From Escherichia coli (GTDB lineage Bacteria > Pseudomonadota > Gammaproteobacteria > Enterobacterales > Enterobacteriaceae), in NCBI RefSeq assembly GCF_044324875.1, contig NZ_CP172185.1: a stretch of 64,000 nt of DNA; one strand, 5' to 3'. The notes below the pieces were generated by a model. That model did not search any database and was not told the DNA's origin. It saw nothing but the letters and a program-made list of their open reading frames with translations. Below are positions 7,411 through 20,287 of the stretch, piece by piece. Numbering within the stretch: the first letter of the stretch is position 1; the number at the start of each line of letters is the position of its first letter. Made by a program: the position numbers and the translations under genes.

Positions 7411-7611
7411 GTTAAGCATCCACAGGCTGGTATCTGCAACCGATTATAACGGATGCTTAACGTAATGCGTGAAGTATGGGCATACTTTATCAATTAGTGT
7501 TTTTTGCCGTTTCATAATGTTTCAGGTTGTGCATTATGTTTTTGATTATAAACAAATTTGTGATTTTTCTTGTTCCAGCTTGTTTCACGTTGTAGCCCTT
7601 TGTGCAACGAT

Positions 7612-7637
7612 CGGTGTAGTTAATGGTGTAGTTAATT
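7612..7637. repeat. attL core (26-bp direct repeat)
   Basis: Identical 26-mer at 18721-18746. The flanking 30 bp are weakly similar, including the motif ttgtt(t/c)cacgttgt. Confidence 0.7.
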
Positions 7638-8888
7638 GTGATGACCGGATTCAAAATTATGAGCAGAGCACTTAACAAGCTGAGCGATACACAGCTAAGG
7701 AAAATCAACGGCACACCCGCCCAAAAAACAGCCTTTCTTAATGACGGTGGAAACTTGAGCGTCAGGCATTCAACCAGCGGCCTTTTAACCTGGTATTTCA
7801 CTTACAGGGCCGGAACGGGAAGGGGGGCATCACCGGAACGCATTAAGCTGGGAAATTATCCTGATCTGAGCCTGAAATCAGCCAGGGAAAAAGCCGCCCA
7901 GTGTCGCGCATGGCTGGCTGAGGGGAAAAATCCACGTCATGAGATGAATTACACCGTACAGGAAGCGTTAAAGCCTGTAACGGTTGGCGATGCGCTCACC
8001 TACTGGCTTGAGTCGTACGCAAAGGAAAACCGTGTGGATTATGACCCACTGAAAAAGCGGCTAAATAATCACGTAATACAGCACATTGGCCCTATGCCGC
8101 TGGATAAATGCGAGCTACGGCACTGGCTGGCCTGTTTTGATCGGGTGGCAAAGCAAGCCCCTGTTTCCGCCGGGTTCCTGCTACAGACATGCAAACAGGC
8201 GCTTAAGTTCTGCCGGAAGCGGCGCTATGCAATCAGCAACGTTCTTGATGATATGAGTGTGGCTGACGTTGGGAAAAAACCGGATATAGGCGAACGTGTC
8301 TTAAGTACCAAAGAACTGGGCGAATTATTGCAGGCACTGGACAAAAAAATATTTTCCCCTTACTACGTCGCACTAATCCGCCTCCTGATTGTTTTCGGAT
8401 GCCGGACAGTAGAACTGAGGTTATCGGAGATCGGCGAGTGGGATTTTACCGAAATGCTCTGGACCGTTCCGAAGGAGCACAGCAAAACGAAGGTAGCCAT
8501 ATTCCGGCCCATACCGGAAGCGATACTGCCGTTCGTCACGCAGCTGATGGAGCAGAACAGGCACACGGGCTTATTGCTGGGGGAAGTGAAACAGGAAACC
8601 AGCGTGTCGCAGTACGGCAGATTAGTGCACAGGAGGCTTAAACACCCTCACTGGTCACTGCATGACATCCGGCGCACCTTTACAACGATGCTGAACGATT
8701 TAGGCGTGGATCCTCACGTCGTGGAGCAGCTTACAGGCCACCAGATGCCAGGAATGCAGCGAGTTTATAATCATTCCCGTTATCTGGATGCGAAACGCAA
8801 TGCGCTGGATATGTGGACGGAGCGGTTAGGGATACTGGCGGGAGCACATGAAAACGTAACCACGCTACCAGTAACCAGAAGAAAATAA
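7638..8888 (+). CDS. int: tyrosine site-specific integrase (P4/CP4-57-type)
   Basis: 416 aa. The C-terminal catalytic region reads ...HDIRRTFTTMLNDLGVDPHVVEQLTGHQ...VYNHSRYLD (R..HxxR..Y). It sits immediately inside attL. Confidence 0.85.
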   Translation: MMTGFKIMSRALNKLSDTQLRKINGTPAQKTAFLNDGGNLSVRHSTSGLLTWYFTYRAGTGRGASPERIKLGNYPDLSLKSAREKAAQCRAWLAEGKNPRHEMNYTVQEALKPVTVGDALTYWLESYAKENRVDYDPLKKRLNNHVIQHIGPMPLDKCELRHWLACFDRVAKQAPVSAGFLLQTCKQALKFCRKRRYAISNVLDDMSVADVGKKPDIGERVLSTKELGELLQALDKKIFSPYYVALIRLLIVFGCRTVELRLSEIGEWDFTEMLWTVPKEHSKTKVAIFRPIPEAILPFVTQLMEQNRHTGLLLGEVKQETSVSQYGRLVHRRLKHPHWSLHDIRRTFTTMLNDLGVDPHVVEQLTGHQMPGMQRVYNHSRYLDAKRNALDMWTERLGILAGAHENVTTLPVTRRK

Positions 8889-8936
8889 TTTTTTTCGTGT
8901 TTTTTCAGTATGCGCATACTGGATAAGTGCACAGAT

Positions 8937-8970
8937 ACAACGTGAAACAATAAGCAACAACGTGAAACAA
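8937..8970 (+). promoter_or_regulatory. tandem copies of a 14-bp motif (acaacgtgaaacaa) that may be integrase arm-type sites
   Basis: The same 14-mer occurs in inverted orientation next to attL (7580-7593). It also occurs with one mismatch next to attR (18689-18702). Confidence 0.4.
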
Positions 8971-9262
8971 CCACGAACAAGAGGTCAAAAAGTATACAGA
9001 TTTATAAGTTGCTGATTTTTAATGCTCAACTGGTTTTTTATACATTAGCGAATAACGCTTTAAATAGTGAGAAAAAAGTCATAAAACGAGATTTTATGCC
9101 TTTGCATAATACTGAATTAAAATGATTTTTATTAAAATCACCCCGTTTCTGTAAAATACCCGCCACCAACATTTGCCAACTCTGAATCACCCTGACACAA
9201 TCAGACACATCCCAACGCAATAGAACACGAAATAACTCTTTAAGAAACGAAAGGGGGCAATA

Positions 9263-9451
9263 GTGTTAAGCACTGATCGGTTTATACGTGAAAAAGAATG
9301 CGAAAAGCTAACAGGCCTTAGCCGCTCATGCCGCTACCGCCTGGAAAAGGCCGGACAATTCCCATCACGGCGTAAGCTGGGCGGTCGTTCCGTTGGCTGG
9401 TCTTTATCCGAAGTTCTGGCATGGAAGGAAAGCTGCGAGGCAGTTCACTAA
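9263..9451 (+). CDS. alpA: AlpA-family phage/satellite transcriptional regulator (excisionase-like HTH)
   Basis: 62 aa reading ...EKECEKLTGLSRSCRYRLEKAGQFPSRRKLGGRSVGWSLSEVLAWKE. This is a typical AlpA/MerR-like HTH. Confidence 0.75.
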   Translation: MLSTDRFIREKECEKLTGLSRSCRYRLEKAGQFPSRRKLGGRSVGWSLSEVLAWKESCEAVH

Positions 9452-9777
9452 AAAGACTGGCGGCACACAGCCGCCACCCATCCACTAATACAGAGATTTA
9501 ACCATGAAGACTGGATATACGCCCGAACAGGGGCGGGGCTTCGTTCGGCCTGGTGAAACTGAAAAACAACAAAATCGCGGTTTTTCAGGCATAAAAAAAG
9601 CGGCCCCGATAAGGAGCCGCCTTTCTGAACAATTAACCTACAGCGCAAAAAATGAATCTGAGCAGTGGGATTATATCAACCGTGCAACGAAGCGCCACAA
9701 TTGCCGGATAACGGGCAAAGAAAAGGCCACCTGTCACGGTGGCCAATGTGATCAGTGTGGTGGCTTGCTGGTGGCTA

Positions 9778-9969
9778 TCAACCTTTGGGTTCTATACCGC
9801 GCCGCTTTAGTTCAGCGCGCCCCAACTCTTTAAGCCAGTTGGCTAGGCTTATGCCGTCGCTCTGCGCTTCTTTGTCGAATTGCTCTTTTAGCTCTGGAGA
9901 AATTCGCATTCTGAATTGTGGGGATTGCCCATCACCCTTAGGGCTTTTATCACGTTTGATTGTTGACAA
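9778..9969 (-). CDS. Arc/MetJ-type ribbon-helix-helix repressor, divergent from the main operon
   Basis: 63 aa reading ...RMRISPELKEQFDKEAQSDGISLANWLKELGRAELKR, which is an Arc-like RHH pattern. It is transcribed away from the downstream operon. Confidence 0.55.
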   Translation of the reverse strand: MSTIKRDKSPKGDGQSPQFRMRISPELKEQFDKEAQSDGISLANWLKELGRAELKRRGIEPKG

Positions 9970-10015
9970 GTGGTCACCTATTAAATTAGCCTTTCTATTG
10001 TTAGGTGGTCACCTT
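9968..10015. promoter_or_regulatory. two copies of an aggtgNNcacct-type palindrome (candidate operators) overlapping a ttgaca -35 hexamer
   Basis: aagtggtcacct at 9968-9979 and aggtggtcacct at 10004-10015, 36 bp apart. They lie in the divergent promoter region between the RHH gene and the rightward operon. Confidence 0.4.
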
Positions 10016-10103
10016 AACACGGGGACACTTAAAAAAGCAAAGCCCGAAGGCGCTAGGAACACCAACGGGCTTCTAACCACAAACCGTTATGAGAGGTAGT
10101 TTT

Positions 10104-10301
10104 ATGGCTGTAAGACAGCATACCCCACGACTAGCGCACACACAAACCGCCTTTGTGTGGCGTTTTCTGGCACTGAGTGCCGGAGAATCTCAAATCATCC
10201 ACGTAACCGCCTGGACGGAACGCGAAGCGCGTAGCCGTTGCCCGTCCGGTTGTGTTGCTGTATTCGCCGCCCGTATTCGTCAGGGGGTGTACCATGATTA
10301 A
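10104..10301 (+). CDS. Icd-like small protein (resembles the host cell-division-inhibitor Icd-like proteins of P4-type elements)
   Basis: ...FVWRFLALSAGESQIIHVTAWTEREARSRCPSGCVAVFAARIRQG matches the YVW.F.A.S...ERxAR...AAR pattern seen after alpA in enterobacterial satellites. Confidence 0.4.
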   Translation: MAVRQHTPRLAHTQTAFVWRFLALSAGESQIIHVTAWTEREARSRCPSGCVAVFAARIRQGVYHD

Positions 10302-10662
10302 CCTGTCACTTACCGATCTTAACCGCGTTCAGTTTCGTGAGAAATTTACCGGACAGCTACTCGTCAATGTGGAGAACGGGCGCATAGTGCGTAATTATCA
10401 CCTGCCGGATGGTGCAATTGCCGGAAGCGTTGAAGCATTGCTGGAACTGGCGGAACGTGCGCGACTGATTAAGCCGTCAACGAGCCATCACGATGATGAT
10501 CTGCATTTTACCGGATGTATGGTGAGTCACTACGAAAACGGCGTCGAGGTATCCTGCGAACGGCTGCGTGATGATTGCTGTTTCGGCACACTGCCGGAAT
10601 TTATCGAATTGCTGACCAGTTGCGGATATCAGGTTATTCAGGGGGTGCGCCATGTGCAATAA
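10294..10662 (+). CDS. hypothetical protein (satellite early region)
   Basis: 123-aa ORF from MINLSLTDL. Its start overlaps the previous gene and its stop overlaps the next gene. No recognisable motif. Confidence 0.4.
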   Translation: MINLSLTDLNRVQFREKFTGQLLVNVENGRIVRNYHLPDGAIAGSVEALLELAERARLIKPSTSHHDDDLHFTGCMVSHYENGVEVSCERLRDDCCFGTLPEFIELLTSCGYQVIQGVRHVQ

Positions 10663-11107
10663 CATCCGTCCGGACGCAGCAGGCGAAGCCATCATAACGC
10701 TAATGCACGCGCTGATTGATATTTCATGCACGGCAGCAACCGCAGAAAAACACATTACCAGAGAGCCGGAATATACAGGGGCAATAATCCCGCATTCGCT
10801 GGCCTACGCACAGCTAACCGCTGATATGGCGCTGAATGAGGCTAAAGCCATCCTGATTGCTGATTGTGAAAATGGGGGGGGGGTTATGCGTGATGATCGT
10901 TTTAATTCCCTGAAACAGGAATTTTCCGGCGTTCCTGATAATGCGGCTGATGCGCTTTCGTCAATATCTGAAATTATGCGGGTGGCTTTTTTCTTTCTTT
11001 GCACTGATGAGCACAGGGATACAGGGCTAAATATTCTTGATATCGCCGCTAATTATGCTGATTTCGTAACGGAAACTGTTTTAAGAAAAACGACGGACGG
11101 GGATTAA
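10652..11107 (+). CDS. hypothetical protein
   Basis: 151-aa ORF translationally coupled to its neighbours. No recognisable motif. Confidence 0.45.
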   Translation: MCNNIRPDAAGEAIITLMHALIDISCTAATAEKHITREPEYTGAIIPHSLAYAQLTADMALNEAKAILIADCENGGGVMRDDRFNSLKQEFSGVPDNAADALSSISEIMRVAFFFLCTDEHRDTGLNILDIAANYADFVTETVLRKTTDGD

Positions 11108-11108
11108 T

Positions 11109-11342
11109 ATGCGTGATATTTACCACGAAACAATAGACCGCGCATTTCTTGCACTTTCTCACAGTGAAAATATGTTGGAAATATTGCGCATATGTCTTGA
11201 AACGCTTGGAGATAATGAACGTGATAAACAGAAATCAATGATTGTCACGGCATTAATAACGCTTCTTGAGCCTGTAATAAATGAGTTGCAGGAAATAGAG
11301 ACATTACACGACCAGTATAAAGCGCCCCACACCGGAGAATAA
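11109..11342 (+). CDS. hypothetical protein
   Basis: 77-aa ORF with tight spacing inside the operon. Confidence 0.4.
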   Translation: MRDIYHETIDRAFLALSHSENMLEILRICLETLGDNERDKQKSMIVTALITLLEPVINELQEIETLHDQYKAPHTGE

Positions 11343-11347
11343 AAAAC

Positions 11348-11635
11348 ATGAAAAATAAAAATTCTGGCGTTAATGCCAGCGGCCCCGCTCGTCCTGAAAT
11401 CCGTCCCGGCGATATTTTCCGTGATAACTACGGCGGCACGGTAATGATTAAGGGCGTGGAAGAACGGCGCGTAACCTACCGCCGTGATGGCTACGAATAT
11501 GACTGCGTTATGCCTGTTTATCAGTTCCGGCGTGATTTCACGCTGGTGGGCCATCGTAAAGCCGTTAATCAGAAACGTGCTGCAAGTTATATCCGCAAAA
11601 TCCGTGAAATGCTGGTCGCAGGGGGTAAGAAATGA
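11348..11635 (+). CDS. hypothetical protein
   Basis: 95-aa ORF overlapping the rep start (ATGA). Confidence 0.45.
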   Translation: MKNKNSGVNASGPARPEIRPGDIFRDNYGGTVMIKGVEERRVTYRRDGYEYDCVMPVYQFRRDFTLVGHRKAVNQKRAASYIRKIREMLVAGGKK

Positions 11636-13038
11636 AACTTGCACCGAACGTAAAACTGTTACCGAAAGATAAACACACTGAGGCGGTTATTTTTGCGGGT
11701 GATAATGCTCACTCCTTTGCAGAACATTACATGATTGCACAGGCCAAAAAAGCAGGCGATCCCATCCCTCCGGTTTACCTGGGCCGTTATCAGTTAAGCG
11801 AACTGGACAACTTACAGATTGTTGATGAAGGACGATACAGGGCAAAGGTCATACGCGCCGGAAACCTGGACGATATGCAGATGCTGACCATTGCCACAAA
11901 ACTGGCGATCGCCGGAGTCCAGGAGGCGCGCCTACTTTCTGAAAATTTCGAACTGCTGGAGGACTGGAGCGACCAGCTACCACGACTACGGGAAACATGG
12001 GAGAGAGGGGAAAGCCTGGTCATGAATGGCGGAAAGCGAAAAATCACACTTCCCATCTCATGGGGTTCTGAGGGATTCGATGCGCAGCAAAGCTACGTCA
12101 TTAAGGGGCTTATTCCGGCTGAGTCATTATGCAGCACCTACGGGGCCAGCGGTTCTTATAAATCGTTCCTCGCCATTTCCTGGTCGTGCCATGTTGCCAC
12201 AGGTATGGCATGGGGAGGCCGCAGGGTAAGTAAGGGTGCGGTTATCTATATCGCTGGCGAAGGCAGCATGGGCGTAAAACGCCGCGTTAAGGCGTGGGAG
12301 ATAACCCACGACAAGGTGGTTACAGATTTGTGCATCATTAACGCGCCTGTTTTCCCTGCATCGCCTGACTATGTGGAGCAGGTTATCAGGACTGCCGGAC
12401 TTGTTAAGAGCAGAACGGGCGAAAATGTGCGGCTGATTGTGATCGACACGCTGGCCCGTTGCTTTGGTGGGAATGATGAAAATGATTCCCGTGATATGGG
12501 CGCATTTATCCAGGGGTGTGACGCGATAAAGCAGGCCACAGGGGCCACGGTGCTGGTGGTTCACCATTCCGGCAAGGATGAAACAAAGGGGGCGCGTGGT
12601 TCCAGTGCATTCCGTGCCGCGCTTGATGCAGAGTACCGAATCAGCCGCGAAAATTCAGACGTTACAGCACTGGTCGCAGCATGTACGAAGATGAAGGACG
12701 CAGAGGAGCCAAAAGAGAGCGCATACGACCTTAAAAGCGTGGAGGTGTTCACCGATACAGATGGCGAAGAAATTGTGTCCATGGTGGTGATTGACGTTCC
12801 CCGCGCCCCTGCTGAACTGGAGCGCATCGAGGAGGCAGGCAACAAGACGGAAAACCATACCGCGCTATGGGGGTGCATCCGTTCACGCACACAGAACGGC
12901 GACAAGTGCACGATCCCGCTGTTACGTGATGACATGAAACGGCTTGGGTATGACGTGAAAAATATGCGGCGATGGTTAGCCAAACTGGAAAAAGACGCCG
13001 TGATTTACATTGATGGTGATGATGTAGGACCACTGTAA
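11632..13038 (+). CDS. replication initiator / RepA-like RecA-fold NTPase (AAA_25-type)
   Basis: 468 aa with Walker A YGASGSYKSFLAI, Walker B LIVIDTLARCF and VLVVHHSGKDETKG. These are typical of RepA/AAA_25 helicase-like satellite and plasmid replication proteins. The iteron array follows immediately. Confidence 0.75.
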   Translation: MKLAPNVKLLPKDKHTEAVIFAGDNAHSFAEHYMIAQAKKAGDPIPPVYLGRYQLSELDNLQIVDEGRYRAKVIRAGNLDDMQMLTIATKLAIAGVQEARLLSENFELLEDWSDQLPRLRETWERGESLVMNGGKRKITLPISWGSEGFDAQQSYVIKGLIPAESLCSTYGASGSYKSFLAISWSCHVATGMAWGGRRVSKGAVIYIAGEGSMGVKRRVKAWEITHDKVVTDLCIINAPVFPASPDYVEQVIRTAGLVKSRTGENVRLIVIDTLARCFGGNDENDSRDMGAFIQGCDAIKQATGATVLVVHHSGKDETKGARGSSAFRAALDAEYRISRENSDVTALVAACTKMKDAEEPKESAYDLKSVEVFTDTDGEEIVSMVVIDVPRAPAELERIEEAGNKTENHTALWGCIRSRTQNGDKCTIPLLRDDMKRLGYDVKNMRRWLAKLEKDAVIYIDGDDVGPL

Positions 13039-13237
13039 AAAGTGAGTAGTAAAAGTGAGTAATGGTGAGGTTTTTACAAAATATTAACACAATTACTCAC
13101 TTTCTCACCTGTATACATGCTCAAAAGTGAGCAGTGAAAAAACACTTATGAAACATGCACATATAAAACACAAAAATCTCAAGTGAGACGAAGTGAGACG
13201 CTTTAAAAAGTGAGTAGTAAAAGTGAGAGATGGTGAG
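13037..13237. repeat. iteron-type replication origin (multiple agtgag-based repeats)
   Basis: The 33-mer aaaaagtgagtagtaaaagtgag(t/a)(a/g)atggtgag occurs at 13037-13069 and 13205-13237. Shorter copies are aggtgagaaagtgagtaa (inverted, 13093-13110), aaaagtgagcagtgaaaa and aagtgagacgaagtgagacg, all in AT-rich surroundings. Confidence 0.6.
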
Positions 13238-13239
13238 CA

Positions 13240-13608
13240 ATGAATAAAAACCGAACAGCAGGACAAAATACCGAAGGTAAATTTATGAACACTGAAATTG
13301 AAACACTGAGCATATCAACTGCCCTTCCTGGCTGGTGGGCTAAGTTCAAAGACGACGACGGCACGGAATGGTATAGCCCAATTGCTGCATGGGCGCTTTG
13401 TGATATCCACCATTTCGGCACCGGAGATACTTACCGCGAAATCTTACCCGTGCTGACCAGTGAGCTGGGCATGAGTCCGCATAGTCCTGATGAGGGAATG
13501 TGCGAGTGCCTTTATCTGCCGGATAAGAAGTTTGTTCACTGTGGTGAATCGATGGTATTTGCCTGGTATCCGGTTAACGACAGCAGCAATAGCGGTACTC
13601 TGGAGTAA
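13240..13608 (+). CDS. hypothetical protein
   Basis: 122-aa ORF starting right after the iterons. Confidence 0.45.
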   Translation: MNKNRTAGQNTEGKFMNTEIETLSISTALPGWWAKFKDDDGTEWYSPIAAWALCDIHHFGTGDTYREILPVLTSELGMSPHSPDEGMCECLYLPDKKFVHCGESMVFAWYPVNDSSNSGTLE

Positions 13609-13611
13609 ATC

Positions 13612-13854
13612 ATGAAGGTAAACCACAAAAAGACAGATCACCGCGCCATTGACCTTACAGAGCACTGGCTGAGGGTGGCGATAAAAATCATCGACCGCAA
13701 CACGGGGGAAGGATACGCGAAAGCACATCCCGAACTGATAAGTGCATTCATGACCACAGCGGCGGCAAACTTTGCCACGCTGACAGAGCGGGATATTGCC
13801 GAAGCAGAACAGGTAACAACCATCAACGTTAAAACCAGTGAGGTGGAATCATGA
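13612..13854 (+). CDS. hypothetical protein
   Basis: 80-aa ORF whose stop overlaps the ssb start. Confidence 0.4.
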   Translation: MKVNHKKTDHRAIDLTEHWLRVAIKIIDRNTGEGYAKAHPELISAFMTTAAANFATLTERDIAEAEQVTTINVKTSEVES

Positions 13855-14261
13855 CAGCACAGATAGCGGCTTACGGGCGGCTGGTGGACGACCCGCAGGT
13901 AAAACAGACCAGTAAGGGTACACCGATGACGCTGGCGCGTATGGCGGTATCTTTACCATGCGGCCAGGCACAGGACGGACAGGCGACGTTATGGTTATCG
14001 GTCATCGCATTTGGCAAACAGGCCGACTTTCTGGCTAAACATCAAAAAGGCGACGTTGCCAGCGTATCCGGCACGATGCAGGTCAGCCAGTGGACCGGAC
14101 AGAACGGGGAAACGCGGCAGGGTTATCAGGTTATTGCAGACAGCGTAATCAGTGCCCGTGCGGCACGTCCTGGCGGGAACAGACGCAAAACCACAGGCAC
14201 ACAGGGTAATCAGCCACCAGCGGGAGGCGATGACCCTTACGGTGATGATATTCCGTTCTGA
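13851..14261 (+). CDS. ssb: single-stranded DNA-binding protein (phage-type SSB)
   Basis: 136 aa with an OB-fold-like N-terminus, a Gly/Pro/Gln-rich linker and the canonical acidic C-terminal tail ...DDPYGDDIPF. Confidence 0.7.
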   Translation: MTAQIAAYGRLVDDPQVKQTSKGTPMTLARMAVSLPCGQAQDGQATLWLSVIAFGKQADFLAKHQKGDVASVSGTMQVSQWTGQNGETRQGYQVIADSVISARAARPGGNRRKTTGTQGNQPPAGGDDPYGDDIPF

Positions 14262-14271
14262 GGGGGTGACG

Positions 14272-14544
14272 ATGGTACATGACCGCATAGCGGAGGAACT
14301 CGAGGCAAAAGGATTTTACCGGAGGGCGGCGGCGCGATGGGGTGAAGTTATGAGGCTGGTGAGCACTGACAAGGAGCGCGAACAGGTGGCAATGCGACGG
14401 CTGGAATGTTCCCTGAAGGCACAGAGGCCACCGGAGCCGCCGGATGATTTAGGCGCTCTGAAAAGGTCAGTTAATCGCACTGAAAAACAAATGGGGATAG
14501 CTGGTATTGGCAAAGCAATATGGCGCAACTACCCGCAGAAGTGA
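14272..14544 (+). CDS. PerC-family-like transcriptional activator
   Basis: MVHDRIAEELEAKGFYRRAAARWGEVM... The N-terminus matches the A.ELE..G.xRRAA.RW motif of PerC-type regulators. The longer ORF 14152..14544 overlaps ssb, so the start at 14272 is preferred. Confidence 0.5.
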   Translation: MVHDRIAEELEAKGFYRRAAARWGEVMRLVSTDKEREQVAMRRLECSLKAQRPPEPPDDLGALKRSVNRTEKQMGIAGIGKAIWRNYPQK

Positions 14545-14551
14545 GCACACA

Positions 14552-14622
14552 GCCGGAGCAATCCGGCTTTTTTACGCCTAAAAAAAGCCCGATAAGGTCA
14601 AAGGGGGCTTATCGGGCTTTTG
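14552..14622 (+). terminator. tandem rho-independent terminators ending the early/replication operon
   Basis: agccggagcaatccggcttttttac and aaaaagcccgataaggtcaaagggggcttatcgggcttttgt. Confidence 0.6.
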
Positions 14623-14784
14623 TAGAGGAGGTTTTTTATGGTGCACTGGCACACATGATCGGGATAATCATTTCATAATTTGCAACATAACTCAATATTG
14701 TTGCGCAAAATGCAATCATGATTATAATCAGGACTGGATGAACATCCAGTTATGATTTTTTAAGTCAAAGAGGAATTTCTGACT

Positions 14785-14991
14785 ATGGCAGAAGAGAAAA
14801 AAGGCGGGGTGACGGTCTACATAAGCCCCGACATCGTGGAGGCGCTCAAGGAACGCCACCAGCAGAATGTAAAAGCAGGCATTGCGGCAGGACTTGATCC
14901 GCTGGCGATGGTTGAGCCGTCAACAGGCTGGCAGGTGCGTACCTATTTACGTGCGGCGCTGGGTATCAATCAGGTTCACGGAGGTGAATAA
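14785..14991 (+). CDS. hypothetical small protein, first gene of the capsid operon
   Basis: 68-aa ORF with an RBS (aagaggaa). Its stop overlaps the MCP start (TAATG). It follows an AT-rich promoter-like region (14630-14784) that contains the partial palindrome ttgcaacat...ttgttgcgcaaaatgcaa. Confidence 0.4.
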   Translation: MAEEKKGGVTVYISPDIVEALKERHQQNVKAGIAAGLDPLAMVEPSTGWQVRTYLRAALGINQVHGGE

Positions 14992-16046
14992 TGACAGGCA
15001 AAGCAAAGGCACTTACAACTAACCAGCTTTTCGCGTACCTGAATCGCGGGGATATTTCGGAATATAAATTTAGTCCGCTGTTTACCACGCTGTTTTTCCC
15101 GAACGTGGCGACCTTCAACACCCAAAACATCATGCTGGACACCCTGGACATTGAAGAGGTTACGATGTCAGCGTTCTGTTCTCCTATGGTGGGTAGTCAG
15201 GTCCAGCGCGATAAAGGGTACGAAACCAGCACGATTAAACCAGGCTACATGAAGCCAAAGCACGAAATCGATCCAACAAAGACCATCATGCGCATGGATG
15301 GAGAAGATCCGGCACAGCTTAACGATCCAACTTACCGCCGTATGCGCCTGATTACTGGCAACATGCGCCGCCAGATAAACGCCATTAAGGCGCGCGTGGA
15401 ATGGCTGGCGGTGAATGCGGTAACGACCGGAAAAAACATCATTGAGGGCGAAGGCATAGAACGCTATGAAATCGACTGGAAAATACCGGAAAACTGCATC
15501 ATACAGCAGGCCAGTGGTAAAAAATGGTCCCAGCAGGATAAAGACATGCACGACCCAATCTATGACATCGAGCTTTATGCTGATCAGGCAGGTTGCCCCG
15601 CCAACGTCATGATTATGGGCGGTGAGGTATGGCGCACATTACGCAGCTTTAAAAAATTCCGTGAACTGTACGATCTTTCCCGTGGATCAGAATCCGCCGC
15701 CGAGCTGGCCTGTAAAAACCTGGGCGAAGTGGTGAGCTTTAAAGGCTATCTTGGTGATCTGGCCCTTATCGTCTATTCCGGCAAATACACTGACAGCGAC
15801 GGGACCGAAAAATATTTCCTTGAGCCTGATTTGCTGGTCCTGGGTAACACCAACAATAAAGGGCTGGTGGCATATGGTGCGATTATGGATCAGGAAGCGG
15901 TAAGAACGGGCGCAACGCAAAACATGTACTACCCGAAAAACTGGATTGAGGACGGCGATCCGGCGATTGAGTACGTGCAGACGCACAGCGCACCGCAGCC
16001 TGTACCGGCAGATATTCGCAAATTTGTTACCGTCAAAATTGCTTAA
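14991..16046 (+). CDS. major capsid protein, lambda gpE family
   Basis: 351 aa, alignable over its full length with lambda gpE. Shared blocks include F.PLF..LFF, KPGYMKPKHEIDP (lambda KPGYVKPKHEVNP), EDPAQLNDPTYRRMR (lambda EDPQNLADPAYRRRR), YSGKY, YPKNW..GDPA and SAP. Confidence 0.85.
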   Translation: MTGKAKALTTNQLFAYLNRGDISEYKFSPLFTTLFFPNVATFNTQNIMLDTLDIEEVTMSAFCSPMVGSQVQRDKGYETSTIKPGYMKPKHEIDPTKTIMRMDGEDPAQLNDPTYRRMRLITGNMRRQINAIKARVEWLAVNAVTTGKNIIEGEGIERYEIDWKIPENCIIQQASGKKWSQQDKDMHDPIYDIELYADQAGCPANVMIMGGEVWRTLRSFKKFRELYDLSRGSESAAELACKNLGEVVSFKGYLGDLALIVYSGKYTDSDGTEKYFLEPDLLVLGNTNNKGLVAYGAIMDQEAVRTGATQNMYYPKNWIEDGDPAIEYVQTHSAPQPVPADIRKFVTVKIA

Positions 16047-16057
16047 CGGGGGATTCT

Positions 16058-16393
16058 ATGGACGCTCCATACATTGAGTTATTTTCAGGCAGCCAACAGG
16101 TATCCACGACGCTGGTACATTTTGCCGCTGATGCTGGCGTTATTCAGGAATTTACCCCGCTGATGCTGGCAGACAATGGCGAGTTTAAGCCGTGGGATGG
16201 TAAGGAATCTGGCAAGGCTGTTTATCTGACCTCGTACCCTGTGGACACGTCAAAGCAGAAATCAGCACAGTGTTACAAGACGGGGATATTCAATATTGCC
16301 GCCGTTAACTGGCCTGACAGCGTCGACACCGATGCGAAAAAATGCGCCGCCTTTGCGGGTTCCGGCGTATCCGTTCAGCCGCTGGCCCGATAA
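16058..16393 (+). CDS. head decoration protein, lambda gpD-like
   Basis: 111 aa, the same size as gpD. ...TPLMLADNGEFKPWDG... resembles lambda TPLMLDTSSRKLVAWDG. ...YKTGIFNIAAVNWPDSVDTDAKKCAAFAGSGVSV resembles lambda [35 protein letters not shown]. Confidence 0.7.
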   Translation: MDAPYIELFSGSQQVSTTLVHFAADAGVIQEFTPLMLADNGEFKPWDGKESGKAVYLTSYPVDTSKQKSAQCYKTGIFNIAAVNWPDSVDTDAKKCAAFAGSGVSVQPLAR

Positions 16394-16460
16394 GCAGGGG
16401 GAACGATGGCACAAACCAGGGCGATGACGGCGACATCTATCGCATACTGAAAACCATCTG

Positions 16461-16493
16461 AGACAAGGCCGGAGAAATCCGGCTTTTTTTGCG
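16461..16493 (+). terminator. rho-independent terminator after the capsid genes
   Basis: gacaaggccggagaaatccggctttttttgcgg. Confidence 0.6.
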
Positions 16494-16521
16494 GGTCCTT
16501 TCCGGCATGTGGACCCGTTAC

Positions 16522-16690
16522 GGGGCGTCGACCTCGCACGTTTTCGCTATTTATGAAAATTTTCCGGGAAAAAGCATGTCAGTTCTTCTTGTTATTAACA
16601 TATTGTTTTTAAAGAAATAACTATCAAGAAAGAAACGACATCATAATGATGAAAAATCTGTTTTTTTTGGCATTTCATGTCGTAACTGAT
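16522..16690. other. lambda-type cos site: cosN (cohesive-end sequence) plus cosB-like R3/I/R2/R1 sites upstream of the Nu1 homologue
   Basis: ggggcgtcgacctcgcacgttttcgctatttatgaaaattttccgg is near-identical to the lambda left end GGGCGGCGACCTCGCGGGTTTTCGCTATTTATGAAAATTTTCCGG. Downstream lie gttcttcttgttattaac (R3-like), aagaaagaaacgacatc (R2-like) and catgtcgtaactg (R1-like), separated by A/T-rich spacers. Confidence 0.7.
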
Positions 16691-16710
16691 TTTTGATAAG
16701 GAATTGCTGA

Positions 16711-17295
16711 ATGAATGTTAATAAAAAGAGGCTTGCCGAAATTTTTAACGTGGACCCGCGGACGATTGAACGCTGGCAGTCACAGGGGCTTCCTTGCGTC
16801 TCCAAAGGCAGTAAGGGCATTGAATCTGTATTTGATACTGCCATGGCAATTCAGTGGTATGCGCGGAGGGAAACTGATATCGAAAACGAAAAGCTCCGCA
16901 AAGAACTGGACGATTTGCGTGCGGCAGCGGAGTCAGATTTACAACCCGGCACCATTGACTATGAACGCTATCGGCTCACAAAAGCGCAGGCAGATGCGCA
17001 GGAACTTAAAAACGAGCGCGATCGCGGTGACGTGATTGATACAGAGTTTTGCATGTACGCGCTTTCAAAACTGGCGAGTCAGATTTCATCAATCATGGAC
17101 AGCCTCCCGCTTACTATGCAAAGGAGCTTCCCACAGATGACCCCCGCCATGCTGGATGGCCTGAAAAAAGAAGTTGTCAGAGCCTGTAACGCATGCACAA
17201 AACTTGATGAAAACATCCCGCGAATGCTGTCCGATTATCTGATGGAAACTACCGGAAATGTGCCTGATAAGTTTCAGCCGGATAAAGACAAGTAA
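16711..17295 (+). CDS. terminase small subunit, lambda Nu1 family
   Basis: [30 protein letters not shown]...[48 protein letters not shown]... closely parallels lambda Nu1 (MEVNKKQLADIFGASIRTIQNWQEQGMPV...[48 protein letters not shown]). A C-terminal segment like the gpA-interacting region is present. Confidence 0.85.
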
Positions 17296-17554
17296 CGTAG
17301 TGCACAATGACCGAAGCCAGTTTACTGACTGGCTTTCAGCGTTGCGCTGGTGGGCGTTATGCGTCAGTGATAAACGTCTCCAATATTACTGATATTCGAC
17401 ATCCCCACCTCTCCACACCAGCTCGAATATCATTTTTCTCATTAAAAACAGGACATTAAAAACTGGTCAGATGTCCCATAAAAAGCCAAATGGGACAGGT
17501 CAAAAGCTTTTTTTGCAGTAATTTTCAATAGGTTACTTGATGTGGTGGTGTCCC

Positions 17555-17935
17555 ATGAAAATTCAAAAATCAGCCGTTTTCCGCGATGCTCCCGCCCCGT
17601 GGCAGGGCACCCCACAAGGAGGACCCGCCATCACTATGGAGGACATGACCATGACCGAGACCGAAGCGCTCGGGATAATCCGCAGTATTACCGGAATCAG
17701 CCAGCAGGCTGGCGAACAGGAGGCCACGCAGCCGGACAGCGTGATCGCCGAAAATTACGTGCGTGTTGTTGCTGATGTAATGCGCCGTGATGGTATTGAG
17801 CTTAACGGCGTGGATATGCGCGACATACGAATCAGAGTACTAGAGTTGCTGGCATACCGTCGACGCGTGGCGATGTATCAGGAGAGCGCGAAAAACACTT
17901 ATCAGTGGAAGAAGCCGGAGCGGTTACGGCGGTAA
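17555..17935 (+). CDS. hypothetical protein downstream of terS
   Basis: About 126 aa from MKIQKSAVF. It is Asp/Glu/Arg-rich with no recognisable motif, and occupies the slot where lambda would encode gpA. Confidence 0.4.
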   Translation: MKIQKSAVFRDAPAPWQGTPQGGPAITMEDMTMTETEALGIIRSITGISQQAGEQEATQPDSVIAENYVRVVADVMRRDGIELNGVDMRDIRIRVLELLAYRRRVAMYQESAKNTYQWKKPERLRR

Positions 17936-17939
17936 CTGG

Positions 17940-18265
17940 TTGATATTTTCGAAATTCGCCAGCGGCGAACATCGGGGAAACCAGCCTAACCAGTTGATTC
18001 TTTCGGAAACAGCCATTGGCGGAATCCGGCGCGGTAACTTGCTGATATTCCCGATAACGCAAAATTGCGCTGGCTACATCCCTCACATCTGAGGACTGAT
18101 AATGCGACATTGCGCTGGCTGGCAAAGTGCAAAATTGCACGATGGCCTAACCCATTGATTATTTCGAAAACCTGCAATGCAGGAAATCGGGGAAGTAAGC
18201 CTAAGCTATTGATTCTTTCGGAAACCTCAATTTGAGGAAGTCGGCGCGGTAACTCGCTGAACTTA
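17940..18265. repeat. two ~110-bp direct repeat units with conserved flanks and variable internal palindromes
   Basis: Unit 1 spans 17940-18050 and unit 2 spans 18152-18262. Each contains ttgat(a/t)tttcgaaa, then a perfect palindrome (ttcgccagcggcgaa or cctgcaatgcagg), then atcggggaa..agcctaa..ttgattctttcggaaac, then a second palindrome (gccattggc or cctcaatttgagg), then ..cggcgcggtaact.gctga. The spacer between units carries more palindromes (gcgcaaaattgcgc, cctcacatctgagg, gtgcaaaattgcac). Confidence 0.6.
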
Positions 18266-18720
18266 AAGCAAACCTCAAAATTGAGCTGGCTGAATAATCA
18301 TTATGATTACGCAGATGATTAAGGAATGACCGAAGGCGGAAATTCGCCTGTGGTTGATGGGGGAGTTGCAGATCTGCAACTCGACCATGAAACTACGGAA
18401 ACTACCCGTAGTTTGGGTAGTAAGAGTAACACCCAGATTTTGGGACTTACTCGTGATACCCAAATTTGGAGTATCGGTGGCAACCATAACGACTTTCGTT
18501 ACGGTTGATGCTTTTACCCCATTGGGGGAAAGGTATTACGATAATCATAACACCTACCGAACAGGTAAAGCCCACCAGCCTGATTGACATTTAACCGGAA
18601 AAAAAGCCAGGTAGCCCCGTTATGTGGATCCCCATATCGACAGCAACGCCCCCTTAAAATTACCCGCCTTTATATTTCTTGTGCCTATTTGTTCCACGTT
18701 GTTTCATACAGTGCGCCGAA

Positions 18721-18746
18721 CGGTGTAGTTAATGGTGTAGTTAATT
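18721..18746. repeat. attR core (26-bp direct repeat)
   Basis: Identical to 7612-7637. Confidence 0.7.
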
Positions 18747-18826
18747 TGCGATTTTTGGCACTTTTGTTTGTGTATATTTTTAATTAAATCAATACATTAA
18801 CTAATATCGGTGATAAAAGGGCATAT

Positions 18827-20287
18827 TTATTCATCTTTCGGCGCAGAATGCTGGCGACCAAAAATCACCTCCATCCGCGCACCGCCCAGCATGCTCTCTC
18901 CGGCGACGATTTTACCCTCATATTGCTCGGTGATTTCGCGGGCTACCGCCAGCCCTACACCTTGCCCAGGGCGTAAAGTATCAACCCGTTGACCACGGTC
19001 GAAAATGACCTCTCGCTTGCTTAATGGAATACCGGGGCCATCATCCTCGACCACAATATAGAGATGCTCGTCGGTTTGCCTTGCAGATATTTCGACAAAC
19101 TCGAGGCAATATTTACAGGCATTATCCAGCACGTTGCCCATCACCTCGACAAAATCGTTCTGCTCACCGACAAAGCTGATCTCTGGCGAAATATCGAGAG
19201 AGATATTGACCCCTTTGCGTTGATACACTTTGTTCAGCGCCGAGGTGAGATTGTCCAGCAGTGGGGCGACCGGATGTAGCTCGCGGCTAAGCAATGTCCC
19301 GCCGCGCATACTGGCACGATGCAGGTAGTAGCCAATTTGCTGTGAAATGCGACTGATTTGCTCCAGCATTACCGGCTCAGCATCACTGACGCTCATCTTC
19401 TCACTACGCAGAGAACGCAGCGTACTTTGCAGCACCGCCAGTGGCGTTTTCAGACTATGGGTCAGGTCGGTGAGCGTTGTACGATATTTGTCGTAACGTT
19501 CGCGTTCACTTTTTAACAATCGGTTCAGGTTTCGTACCAGACTGGTCAGTTCTCGCGTTGTGGCTGGATTGAGCAATTCGCGGTTATGTTCTTCCAGTTC
19601 GCGGACTTCTTTTGCCAGGGCTTCGATGGGGCGTAAACTCCACCTGGCGGCGACCCACAGCAGCGGGATCACTAACAGCAGATTGGCTGAGAGCACATAG
19701 ATAAACCAGCTCCAGACCATATAGGAACTTTTTAGCTCCACCGGAATGGTATCCACCACCACAATGGTCAACTTTGGCATCCGCGATGTTGCCGGGTAGA
19801 CGTTTACCGCCACCGAGTGGGTCATCTCCGCGTCGTCATCATCTTCCCGCACTTCCTGCAACTGTTGCTGTATCGAATGATCTCCACTCAGCAAGAGGCT
19901 GGTATCGTTAACATCCGCTTCAATTTCATGAAAACCATTCGATTTCAGCCAGTCAGGCTGGATCATCTTCATCAGCCAGGGCACGTCACGTTGCGCCCAT
20001 AAAAGCTGCCCGTTCTCATCATAAATTAGCGTCATAGTGGGGCTTTGCTTGTCGATATTTTCGGGTAACTCGACATGCAACTTATTGTTTTCCCACTTCG
20101 CAAGGGTATAGAACAGATTGCTCTCGCCACGTAACAGCCGAAACGTAGTTTTATCGAAACTGACGCTATAACCGATCAGCGCGACCATTCCGTAGGCAAG
20201 CGAAAGCACCAGTACAACCGCTGCCGTTGCCAATAGAAAACGTACCCGCAGCGAGAGCGGGAAAAAAAGACGCAGTAATTTTTTCAT
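18827..20287 (-). CDS. phoQ: sensor histidine kinase PhoQ
   Basis: 486 aa, recognised sequence. It has a periplasmic acidic patch, HAMP domain, H-box and HATPase. Confidence 0.95.

Follow-up and report, generated by a model that had tools for sequence, protein, structure and literature searches.

An 11.3-kb island at the 3′ end of phoQ in Escherichia coli, very probably an EcCICFT073-lineage member of the Gram-negative phage-inducible chromosomal islands

Background

In phage-inducible chromosomal islands (PICIs), the core, as modelled in SatelliteFinder, has been described as an integrase, a regulator, a primase-replicase, a capsid-morphogenesis gene and terS, the gene for the small terminase (TerS), and for elements with all five components (Type A) a figure of 97% in E. 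coli is given (de Sousa 2023, PMC10085698). The prototype EcCICFT073 encodes the capsid protein c1499 and the head decoration protein c1500 (Fillol-Salom 2018, PMC6092414), and of the 29 reference Gram-negative PICIs, 21 have a gene for a major capsid protein (Mageeney 2023, PMC10111431). The genes of EcCICFT073 follow the order int, alpA, small genes, DUF4222, rep, a hypothetical gene, the genes for a single-strand DNA-binding protein (SSB) and PerC, a gene for a 68-amino-acid (aa) protein, the genes for the major capsid protein (MCP, 351 aa) and the gpD-family decoration protein (111 aa), c1501, rppA and c1504. Here we describe an island of 11.3 kb at the 3′ end of phoQ in a window of E. coli contig NZ_CP172185.1, the window being the whole stretch of 64,000 nucleotides that was analysed. 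We hold with high confidence that the island is a classical Gram-negative PICI of the EcCICFT073 lineage.

Gene content and classification

An initial annotation of this DNA recognized a phage satellite with Gram-negative PICI architecture, which is supported by the gene content and by comparison with EcCICFT073 and with an island of E. coli O157:H7 EC4115. It also held that capsid genes are either lacking from the published satellite classes or come as part of a near-complete head set, a statement contradicted by c1499 and c1500 and by the 21 reference islands with an MCP gene. The further claim, that the gene set fits no described family, fails, since the prototype lies at the same roxA-phoQ site with the same backbone; an end-to-end match to a known family exists in substance, in EcCICFT073 and in the collinear O157:H7 EC4115 island. 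The components on which the classification is based are as follows.

7638-8888, plus strand: tyrosine integrase (Pfam Arm-DNA-bind_3 and Phage_integrase), likely start ATG 7659, 409 aa
9263-9451, plus strand: AlpA regulator (Pfam Phage_AlpA, E 5e-18), 95.2% identical to EcCICFT073 AlpA
11632-13038, plus strand: RepA-family replicative helicase (Pfam AAA_25, E 8.5e-43; phrog_2850 over its full length, and helicase-primase PHROGs)
13033-13251, no strand: iteron region and predicted replication origin, with a AAAGTGAG core and 37-nt and 17-nt repeat families
14785-14991, plus strand: 68-aa protein (phrog_3255), which always precedes the capsid gene
14991-16046, plus strand: lambda gpE-family MCP homolog, ortholog of c1499 (Pfam Phage_cap_E, E 2e-49; phrog_29, E 2e-108)
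16058-16393, plus strand: lambda gpD-family head decoration protein homolog, ortholog of c1500 (Pfam HDPD, E 1.2e-17)
16492-16688, plus strand: lambda-family cos site, aligned to the annotated cos of phage 21 with its subsites in register
16711-17295, plus strand: Nu1-type small terminase (Pfam Phage_Nu1, E 1.4e-71)

The integrase stands at one end of the island and is 94.6% identical in amino acid sequence to EcCICFT073 Int; beside it lies AlpA, the place in which PICIs have AlpA or a MerR or Stl regulator. The island has its own replicase module, formed by the AAA_25 RepA helicase and the iterons, and a capsid homolog 95.2% identical to c1499, a component that characterises the PICIs of Proteobacteria. 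Where a PICI is expected to have a TerS homolog or Rpp and/or a packaging site of the helper type, this one has the Nu1 homolog and a complete cos. Its length, 11,341 bp, falls within the approximately 10-15 kb of PICIs, other structural and lysis genes being absent from all ORFs by Pfam and PHROG, and its specific att site, roxA-phoQ, is common to EcCICFT073 and the O157 island. On every criterion that a sequence can test, then, the island fits the described PICI family. The capsid, decoration and small-terminase genes that it carries have been published as a hallmark of EcCICFT073-type PICIs and define no new intermediate class. The island is a mosaic PICI, mildly notable only for its corrected att structure, its chimeric TerS/cosB cassette and its loss of c1501, and its annotation should name it as a PICI of the EcCICFT073 family, give the true att boundaries, and not present it as a new satellite class.

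All domains named at the outset (integrase, AlpA, AAA_25, SSB, Phage_cap_E, gpD/HDPD, Phage_Nu1 and PerC) were recovered with Pfam. The gene set had been said to lack portal, scaffold, protease, large terminase (TerL), tail and lysis genes, and searches of every island ORF with Pfam and PHROGs agree: none of these was found, nor did the hypothetical ORFs hide a portal, terL or protease gene. The remaining ORFs have at most 151 aa and match only PHROGs of unknown function. PADLOC gave no match for defence cargo in the island and Rfam none for RNA families. No ORF matched the hallmarks of P4-like satellites (the psu-delta-sid operon, epsilon/ash, the alpha primase-helicase) in Pfam or PHROG, and only int and alpA are common to those satellites and the island.

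The capsid-forming PICIs (cf-PICIs), of which EcCIEDL933 is the prototype, combine PICI-type int, alpA and rep with capsid-related and terS genes, as the island does, and differ from it by adding protease, portal, connectors, HNH, TerL and small capsids of their own. One alternative is that the island derives from a cf-PICI of the EcCIEDL933 type by deletion of the portal, protease, connectors, HNH and TerL; int, alpA and rep types and some attB sites are common to cf-PICIs and classical E. coli PICIs, and one deletion, that of c1501, is visible here. However, the cf-PICI module runs capsid, protease, portal, connectors, hnh, terS, terL, and neither additional genes nor remnants of them were found, with no domain for a protease, portal, head-tail adaptor or connector, HNH or TerL in any ORF by Pfam and PHROG. 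The capsid and terS sequences of PICIs and cf-PICIs separate almost perfectly in published trees (de Sousa 2023, PMC10085698), and the MCP-gpD modules of the island and of EcCICFT073, a classical PICI, share 92-95% identity. We give such a derivation practically no credence.

Comparison with EcCICFT073 and the O157:H7 island

EcCICFT073 has the same roxA-phoQ site, type of att core, arm repeats and gene order as the island in the window, and blastn aligned the two at 92-93% over roxA/int/alpA and again from SSB through gpD. Int, AlpA, SSB, the 68-aa protein, MCP and gpD are 93-98% identical, PerC is present, a lambda-type cosN occupies the equal position, and the sizes are similar (approximately 11.45 kb in the prototype and 11.34 kb here). 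The window island differs in having a RepA/AAA_25 helicase in place of the D5-type primase, and in its early regulatory/Icd region. It has lost c1501 and has a single cosN, with a G-to-T change, against two in the prototype; where the prototype has RppA and its unrelated cosB, it has a full-length Nu1-type TerS and a cosB of phage 21 type.

The island of O157:H7 EC4115 (NC_011353.1, approximately 1,535.5-1,546.7 kb) lies in the same site and is collinear end to end, with genes for Int, AlpA, an Icd-like protein, DUF4222, RepA, SSB, PerC, the 68-aa protein, MCP, gpD, TerS and the last hypothetical protein. The C-terminal half of its TerS belongs to the same lineage (84% nucleotide identity). 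It differs in keeping c1501, in a TerS N-terminal domain and cosB that are not of phage 21 type, and in a RepA gene of approximately 76% nucleotide identity. We considered whether this O157 element is the published EcCIEDL933 and dropped the identification, the latter being the cf-PICI prototype, with another gene set.

Insertion site and element ends

The perfect 26-bp direct repeats that the initial annotation reported are indeed present in both copies (CGGTGTAGTTAATGGTGTAGTTAATT; 7612-7637 and 18721-18746, with a chance expectation of 0), and they extend imperfectly to approximately 75 nt. They are not, as it had supposed, the boundaries of the island. The empty-site search that it had called for located an uninterrupted roxA-phoQ site, with a 75-bp intergenic region, in strain 720632. 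This site matches the window as far as 7490 and again from 18819, with a 12-nt overlap, which places the junctions outside the 26-bp repeats. The repeats were rejected as the att core by this alignment, and the ends are now described by these features.

7478-7490, plus strand: attL core GGGCATACTTTAT, the left junction, duplicating the 3′ end of phoQ (empty-site alignment)
18819-18830, plus strand: attR core GGGCATATTTAT, overlapping the phoQ stop codon at 18827-18829 (empty-site alignment)
7613-7636, plus strand: left pair of GGTGTAGTTAAT units, a putative integrase arm-type site
18722-18745, plus strand: right GGTGTAGTTAAT pair, putative arm-type sites
8937-8968, minus strand: two GTTTCACGTTGT motifs between int and alpA, candidate sites for Int, AlpA or an accessory factor

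The junction core measures 12-13 bp, and an equivalent core occurs in CFT073 and O157; the element length given above is from core to core. The 26-bp repeats lie within the element, approximately 125 bp from its left end and 75 bp from its right end, and each consists of two tandem 12-mers, GGTGTAGTTAAT. These pairs are kept at both ends of the CFT073, O157:H7 and TUM1886 islands. Because they persist in the TUM1886 island, which is integrated at another gene, tqsA, with a different core, and because the integrase has an Arm-DNA-bind_3 domain, the 26-bp repeats are probably arm-type sites of the integrase and not the crossover core.

The tqsA island of TUM1886 encodes a 94%-identical integrase and has identical arm repeats and element ends around a different core, ATAACAGCA. 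In the regions compared (2490-2510 and 13480-13515 of the TUM1886 locus, L001, against 7478-7495 and 18795-18830 of the window) the right ends differ over the last 25 bp or so only. From these alignments it looks as if a swap of the attP core retargeted integration between the roxA-phoQ and tqsA islands.

The motif GTTYCACGTTGT occurs once near each element end (7582 and 18691, plus strand) and twice, inverted, between int and alpA (8937 and 8957, minus strand). The islands of CFT073, O157 and TUM1886 conserve this arrangement, and the motifs could be binding sites for AlpA/Xis or for another recombination or regulatory factor.

Capsid module

The 68-aa, MCP and gpD genes form a module that was found, at a coverage of at least 80%, in 597 of 5426 complete E. 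coli genomes (approximately 11%). The MCP stands apart from every phage in the collection, its best phage match being 47% (lambda E, 42.8%), and the decoration protein shares 96.4% identity with c1500 and 31.7% with lambda D. The ratio of nonsynonymous to synonymous substitution rates (dN/dS) for MCP is 0.08-0.13, comparable to that of int and SSB. The MCP and decoration genes are not decaying and are under strong purifying selection; with an MCP dN/dS of approximately 0.1, they are maintained by selection.

The island could also be pictured as a decayed lambdoid prophage remnant that retained E, D, cos and Nu1. The MCP, gpD and Nu1 families are lambdoid, and cos with the first 300 nt of terS is approximately 85-97% identical to phage 21. 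Yet the order in the island is E, D, cos, Nu1 against cos, Nu1, A, W, B, C, Nu3, D, E in lambda, so that E and D are reversed, and the capsid proteins are only distantly phage-like (MCP 43-47% and gpD 32% identical to phage versions). The compact element of 11.0-11.5 kb recurs across hundreds of genomes, its genes intact and subject to purifying selection, and has its own AlpA, RepA and iteron replicon, while Pfam and PHROG revealed no remnants of lambdoid immunity, replication, tail or lysis genes. A prophage origin of this kind is extremely unlikely.

Selection on the capsid genes also bears on a further alternative, a new satellite class intermediate between classical PICIs and cf-PICIs, which would build or remodel its own MCP/decoration shell on a helper portal, scaffold and protease. 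Intact MCP and gpD genes with such a dN/dS, in a lineage at most 47% identical to any phage, must do something; their function is not established in the literature, and PmCI172, a Gram-negative PICI that carries an MCP, makes small capsids (PMC6092414). SaPIbov5, through Ccm, provides another case of a satellite-borne homolog of the helper MCP that yields small capsids. For the orthologous EcCICFT073 genes no redirection of capsid size was seen: deletion of c1499 or c1500 left transfer and interference unchanged ("no phenotype"), and packaging with a lambda helper gave DNA of phage size (Fillol-Salom 2018, PMC6092414). Moreover, the gene set is the published E. coli PICI core, present in the prototype at the same site, and c1501, the third gene of the module, is lost here. 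We therefore judge a new class very improbable and retain the classical PICI assignment. The function of the capsid genes is a question for the whole PICI family, with no known phenotype since 2018, and not one for this locus.

The lost gene has left a trace after the decoration gene.

16406-16450, plus strand: remnant of a c1501-type gene, 14 codons with start and end fused (junction 16403-16411)

Relative to CFT073, O157 and TUM1886, approximately 350 bp are missing at this point, as a jump in blastn coordinates. The deletion is probably harmless, because a c1501::tetA derivative of EcCICFT073 still transfers (Fillol-Salom 2018, PMC6092414). Among other assemblies the identical TerS was found with both intact and deleted c1501.

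The intact c1501-type gene (137 aa; 10984-11397 in the TUM1886 locus, L001, and 10684-11097 in the CFT073 locus, L003) belongs to phrog_1999 and is sometimes called "head-tail connector" by PGAP. Its residues 45-120 match the C-terminal end of the head-maturation-protease family phrog_53 (E 5.5e-9). In lambda, the equivalent of that protease region is the nested scaffold Nu3, and c1501 may on this ground be scaffold-like.

Packaging site and small terminase

A lambda-type cos site had been predicted here, and the alignment to phage 21 resolved a full lambda-family cos with these subsites.

16492-16503, plus strand: R4/cosQ-proximal box, 12/12 matches to phage 21
16523-16534, plus strand: cosN GGGCGTCGACCT, one change (G-to-T) from lambda and 21
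16552-16566, plus strand: I2, from the phage 21 alignment, as are the four below
16572-16587, plus strand: R3
16594-16608, plus strand: I1
16630-16645, plus strand: R2
16673-16688, plus strand: R1

Together, cos and the terminase gene have approximately 85% nucleotide identity to cos and gene 1 of phage 21. The G-to-T change in cosN is shared with the TUM1886 PICI (L001, 11459) and absent from EcCICFT073, which has two inverted cosN copies (L003, 11159 and 11898) where the window has one.

Judged from the alignments, TerS is a natural chimera, with a phage-21 N-terminal half joined to a C-terminal half of PICI lineage and placed beside a 21-type cosB. The identity with phage 21 gp1 is 96.9% over residues 1-96; residues 102-194 are 34.6% identical to 21, 43.8% to lambda Nu1 and 100% to the TerS of the TUM1886 PICI. 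Only a cassette of approximately 470 bp, from cosB to the N-terminal part of terS, is phage-like. The N-terminal half is presumed to bind DNA and the C-terminal half to bind TerL, following the model of a cosB-binding N-terminal and a TerL-binding C-terminal part supported by a lambda-21 hybrid (PMC9026076, PMC6739421).

None of the 5426 complete genomes has the exact chimeric arrangement. In draft assemblies the identical TerS is listed in at least 109 blocks, and the places shown (5, for 24 contigs) all lie in this PICI at roxA-phoQ. Because the identical TerS recurs across draft assemblies, the island is a circulating lineage and not a one-off.

In the Rpp-type cos PICIs, Rpp (RppA, RppB or RppC) heterodimerises with the helper TerS and cosB is not phage-like (Fillol-Salom 2019). 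The island departs from this type, with a full-length Nu1 TerS in the position of rppA and a cosB resembling that of phage 21. The 94-aa and 132-aa ORFs that follow terS were considered as Rpp candidates and discarded, a PDB sequence search giving no match to solved Rpp structures; the N-terminal domain of the O157/TUM-type PICI TerS likewise showed no convincing similarity to Rpp by alignment and PDB search.

Two described systems resemble this arrangement. TerS-S from pathogenicity islands of Staphylococcus aureus (SaPIs) is a satellite TerS that recognises the satellite's own packaging site and borrows the helper TerL, as the island TerS would; it works with pac/headful phages, often together with Ppi and remodelling of capsid size, whereas the TerS described here is cos-type and of the Nu1 family. 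The laboratory lambda-21 hybrid terminase (Feiss laboratory, PMC9026076) likewise joins a 21-type N-terminal half to a C-terminal half of another lineage, with the crossover within a conserved 10-residue stretch. The island TerS differs in being natural and satellite-borne, and its C-terminal half is PICI-specific (44% to lambda) and not that of lambda. A natural 21/PICI TerS with its matching cosB is a test case for orthogonal packaging specificity of cos satellites without Rpp.

Proposed life cycle

Induction, packaging and high-frequency transfer that depend on a helper phage, together with interference against it, belong to the description of classical PICIs and are known from the relative EcCICFT073. 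By analogy with EcCICFT073, a lambdoid helper phage would switch on alpA, and Int, acting through the tandem 12-mer arm sites, would excise the element by recombination within the 12-bp core. The island would then be amplified into concatemers by RepA and SSB from the iteron origin. At its cos it would be cut by the helper terminase, and heads and tails made by the helper would take it up; a lambda-sized head would be filled by four copies (45.4 kb). In EcCICFT073 the helper TerS is re-targeted by Rpp (Fillol-Salom 2019). The island would supply its own TerS instead: the 21-type N-terminal domain would bind the R boxes of the 21-type cosB, and the C-terminal domain of PICI lineage would recruit the helper TerL, so that packaging is diverted to the island. 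This division of labour is proposed because in lambda-21 hybrids cosB specificity lies with the N-terminal half and TerL specificity with the C-terminal half. It would amount to the logic of SaPI TerS in a cos system, as an alternative to Rpp.

Several points weigh against this reading of the island as a PICI of the EcCICFT073 lineage. Its induction, helper, excision and transfer are what we infer from its relatives, and the TerL partner of the TerS C-terminal domain is a candidate helper TerL only. A helper prophage was sought within the window, where no second Nu1 or MCP homolog occurs. TerS has no close phage counterpart for its C-terminal half (best phage match 54%), the single-base departure of cosN from lambda and 21 may bear on cleavage efficiency, and c1501 is lost. 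The term Type A PICI, as used by SatelliteFinder, appears to apply to the island, judged by the published list of components.

A further, two-part idea would go beyond what is described for these islands. Swapping of the 470-bp or so cosB/terS-N cassette with helper-type phages would re-tune packaging while the TerL-recruiting C-domain is kept, and the 68-aa, MCP and gpD proteins would have a helper-specific capsid role that was missed with lambda, phi80 and CFT073-prophage helpers, for example co-assembly into heads or evasion of capsid-sensing defences. We regard this idea as unlikely; if either part were true, it would extend the known family and found no new one.

Early genes and replication module

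AlpA is essential for the induction and transfer of EcCICFT073 (Fillol-Salom 2018, PMC6092414). Downstream of alpA the early region contains the following features.

9778-9969, minus strand: small ribbon-helix-helix (Arc/HicB-like) protein, 63 aa (phrog_228, Arc-like repressor, E 4.6e-7; Pfam HicB, E 4.8e-4)
9963-9979 and 9998-10014, no strand: pair of 17-nt GGTCACC-centred motifs, TTGACAAGTGGTCACCT and TTGTTAGGTGGTCACCT, putative operators in the divergent region
10089-10301, plus strand: Icd-like/small repressor-family protein, 70 aa (phrog_1743, phrog_6196)
10294-10662, 10652-11107 and 11109-11342, plus strand: small conserved genes, with PHROGs of unknown function only
11348-11635, plus strand: DUF4222 gene (Pfam DUF4222, E 5.6e-26)

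The Arc-like gene is transcribed divergently. Its identification, and that of the Icd-like gene, had been proposed initially and is borne out by the PHROG matches of the 63-aa minus-strand and 70-aa ORFs; the two copies of the 17-nt motif agree with the paired operators suggested near the repressor. In RefSeq, homologs of the 10089-10301 product are named "host cell division inhibitor Icd-like". Gene calls across 10294-11635 are identical in draft assemblies, and this region has no PADLOC match.

Opposite window positions 9504-10099, the TUM1886 annotation has a single plus-strand ORF of 198 aa (L001, 4521-5117). A 1-nt indel relative to TUM1886 divides the plus strand of the window there into ORFs of 109 and 114 aa. 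These plus-strand ORFs have no family match in either version, and the overlapping minus-strand Arc-like ORF was preferred; the RefSeq call of 198 aa in TUM1886 may be spurious.

From its family matches, the RepA-family helicase is the predicted replication initiator of the island. The same type of rep gene is found in the O157 island, with a D5-type primase in CFT073 instead. The iterons expected downstream of it were found, and a position directly 3′ of rep is the published layout of PICI origins (Fillol-Salom 2018, PMC6092414). The module continues with these features.

13285-13608 and 13612-13854, plus strand: two small conserved hypothetical genes (phrog_27268 and phrog_1231)
13851-14261, plus strand: single-strand DNA-binding protein (Pfam SSB, E 9e-17), 98.5% identical to EcCICFT073 SSB
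14272-14544, plus strand: PerC-family regulator (Pfam PerC, E 1.2e-37)
14551-14573, plus strand: intrinsic-terminator-like hairpin directly after perC, with a near-copy at 16463-16489 after the capsid module

PerC-like genes are reported to be common in Gram-negative PICIs.

Right end, element length and flanks

The last part of the island contains one gene and a repeat region.

17651-17935, plus strand: 94-aa conserved hypothetical protein, ortholog of the last EcCICFT073 gene (phrog_1561, E 4e-49; 74% identical)
17933-18291, no strand: non-coding repeat region, with a 113-nt direct repeat (74% identity) and three 23-nt GATAAYGCRAMATTGCGCTGGCT-like repeats

The non-coding right end comprises approximately 800 bp (17933-18720), in which several short hairpins also occur, and is partly conserved in CFT073 and O157. 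The repeat region gave no match in Rfam.

The core-to-core lengths at roxA-phoQ are 11.34 kb in the window (7478-18830), approximately 11.45 kb in CFT073 (L003, 1350-12802) and approximately 11.21 kb in O157 (L007, 1204-12414). Four copies give 45.4 kb for the window island and 44.8-45.8 kb across the three islands. A length of 45.4 kb is within the packageable range of lambda. That the lengths are so tight, although modules were swapped and c1501 was deleted, suggests that length is under selection for cos packaging into heads of lambda size, and the four-copy range fits the phage-sized packaged DNA that has been reported.

In two draft assemblies with an identical island (L009, 18975-19265, and L010, 15092-15382) a lambda-type integrase (Arm-DNA-bind_1) directly follows icd. 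This icd-adjoining integrase lies approximately 8 kb from the PICI, which is the layout of the helper prophage of CFT073. Chromosomal genes take its place after icd in the window and in other assemblies.

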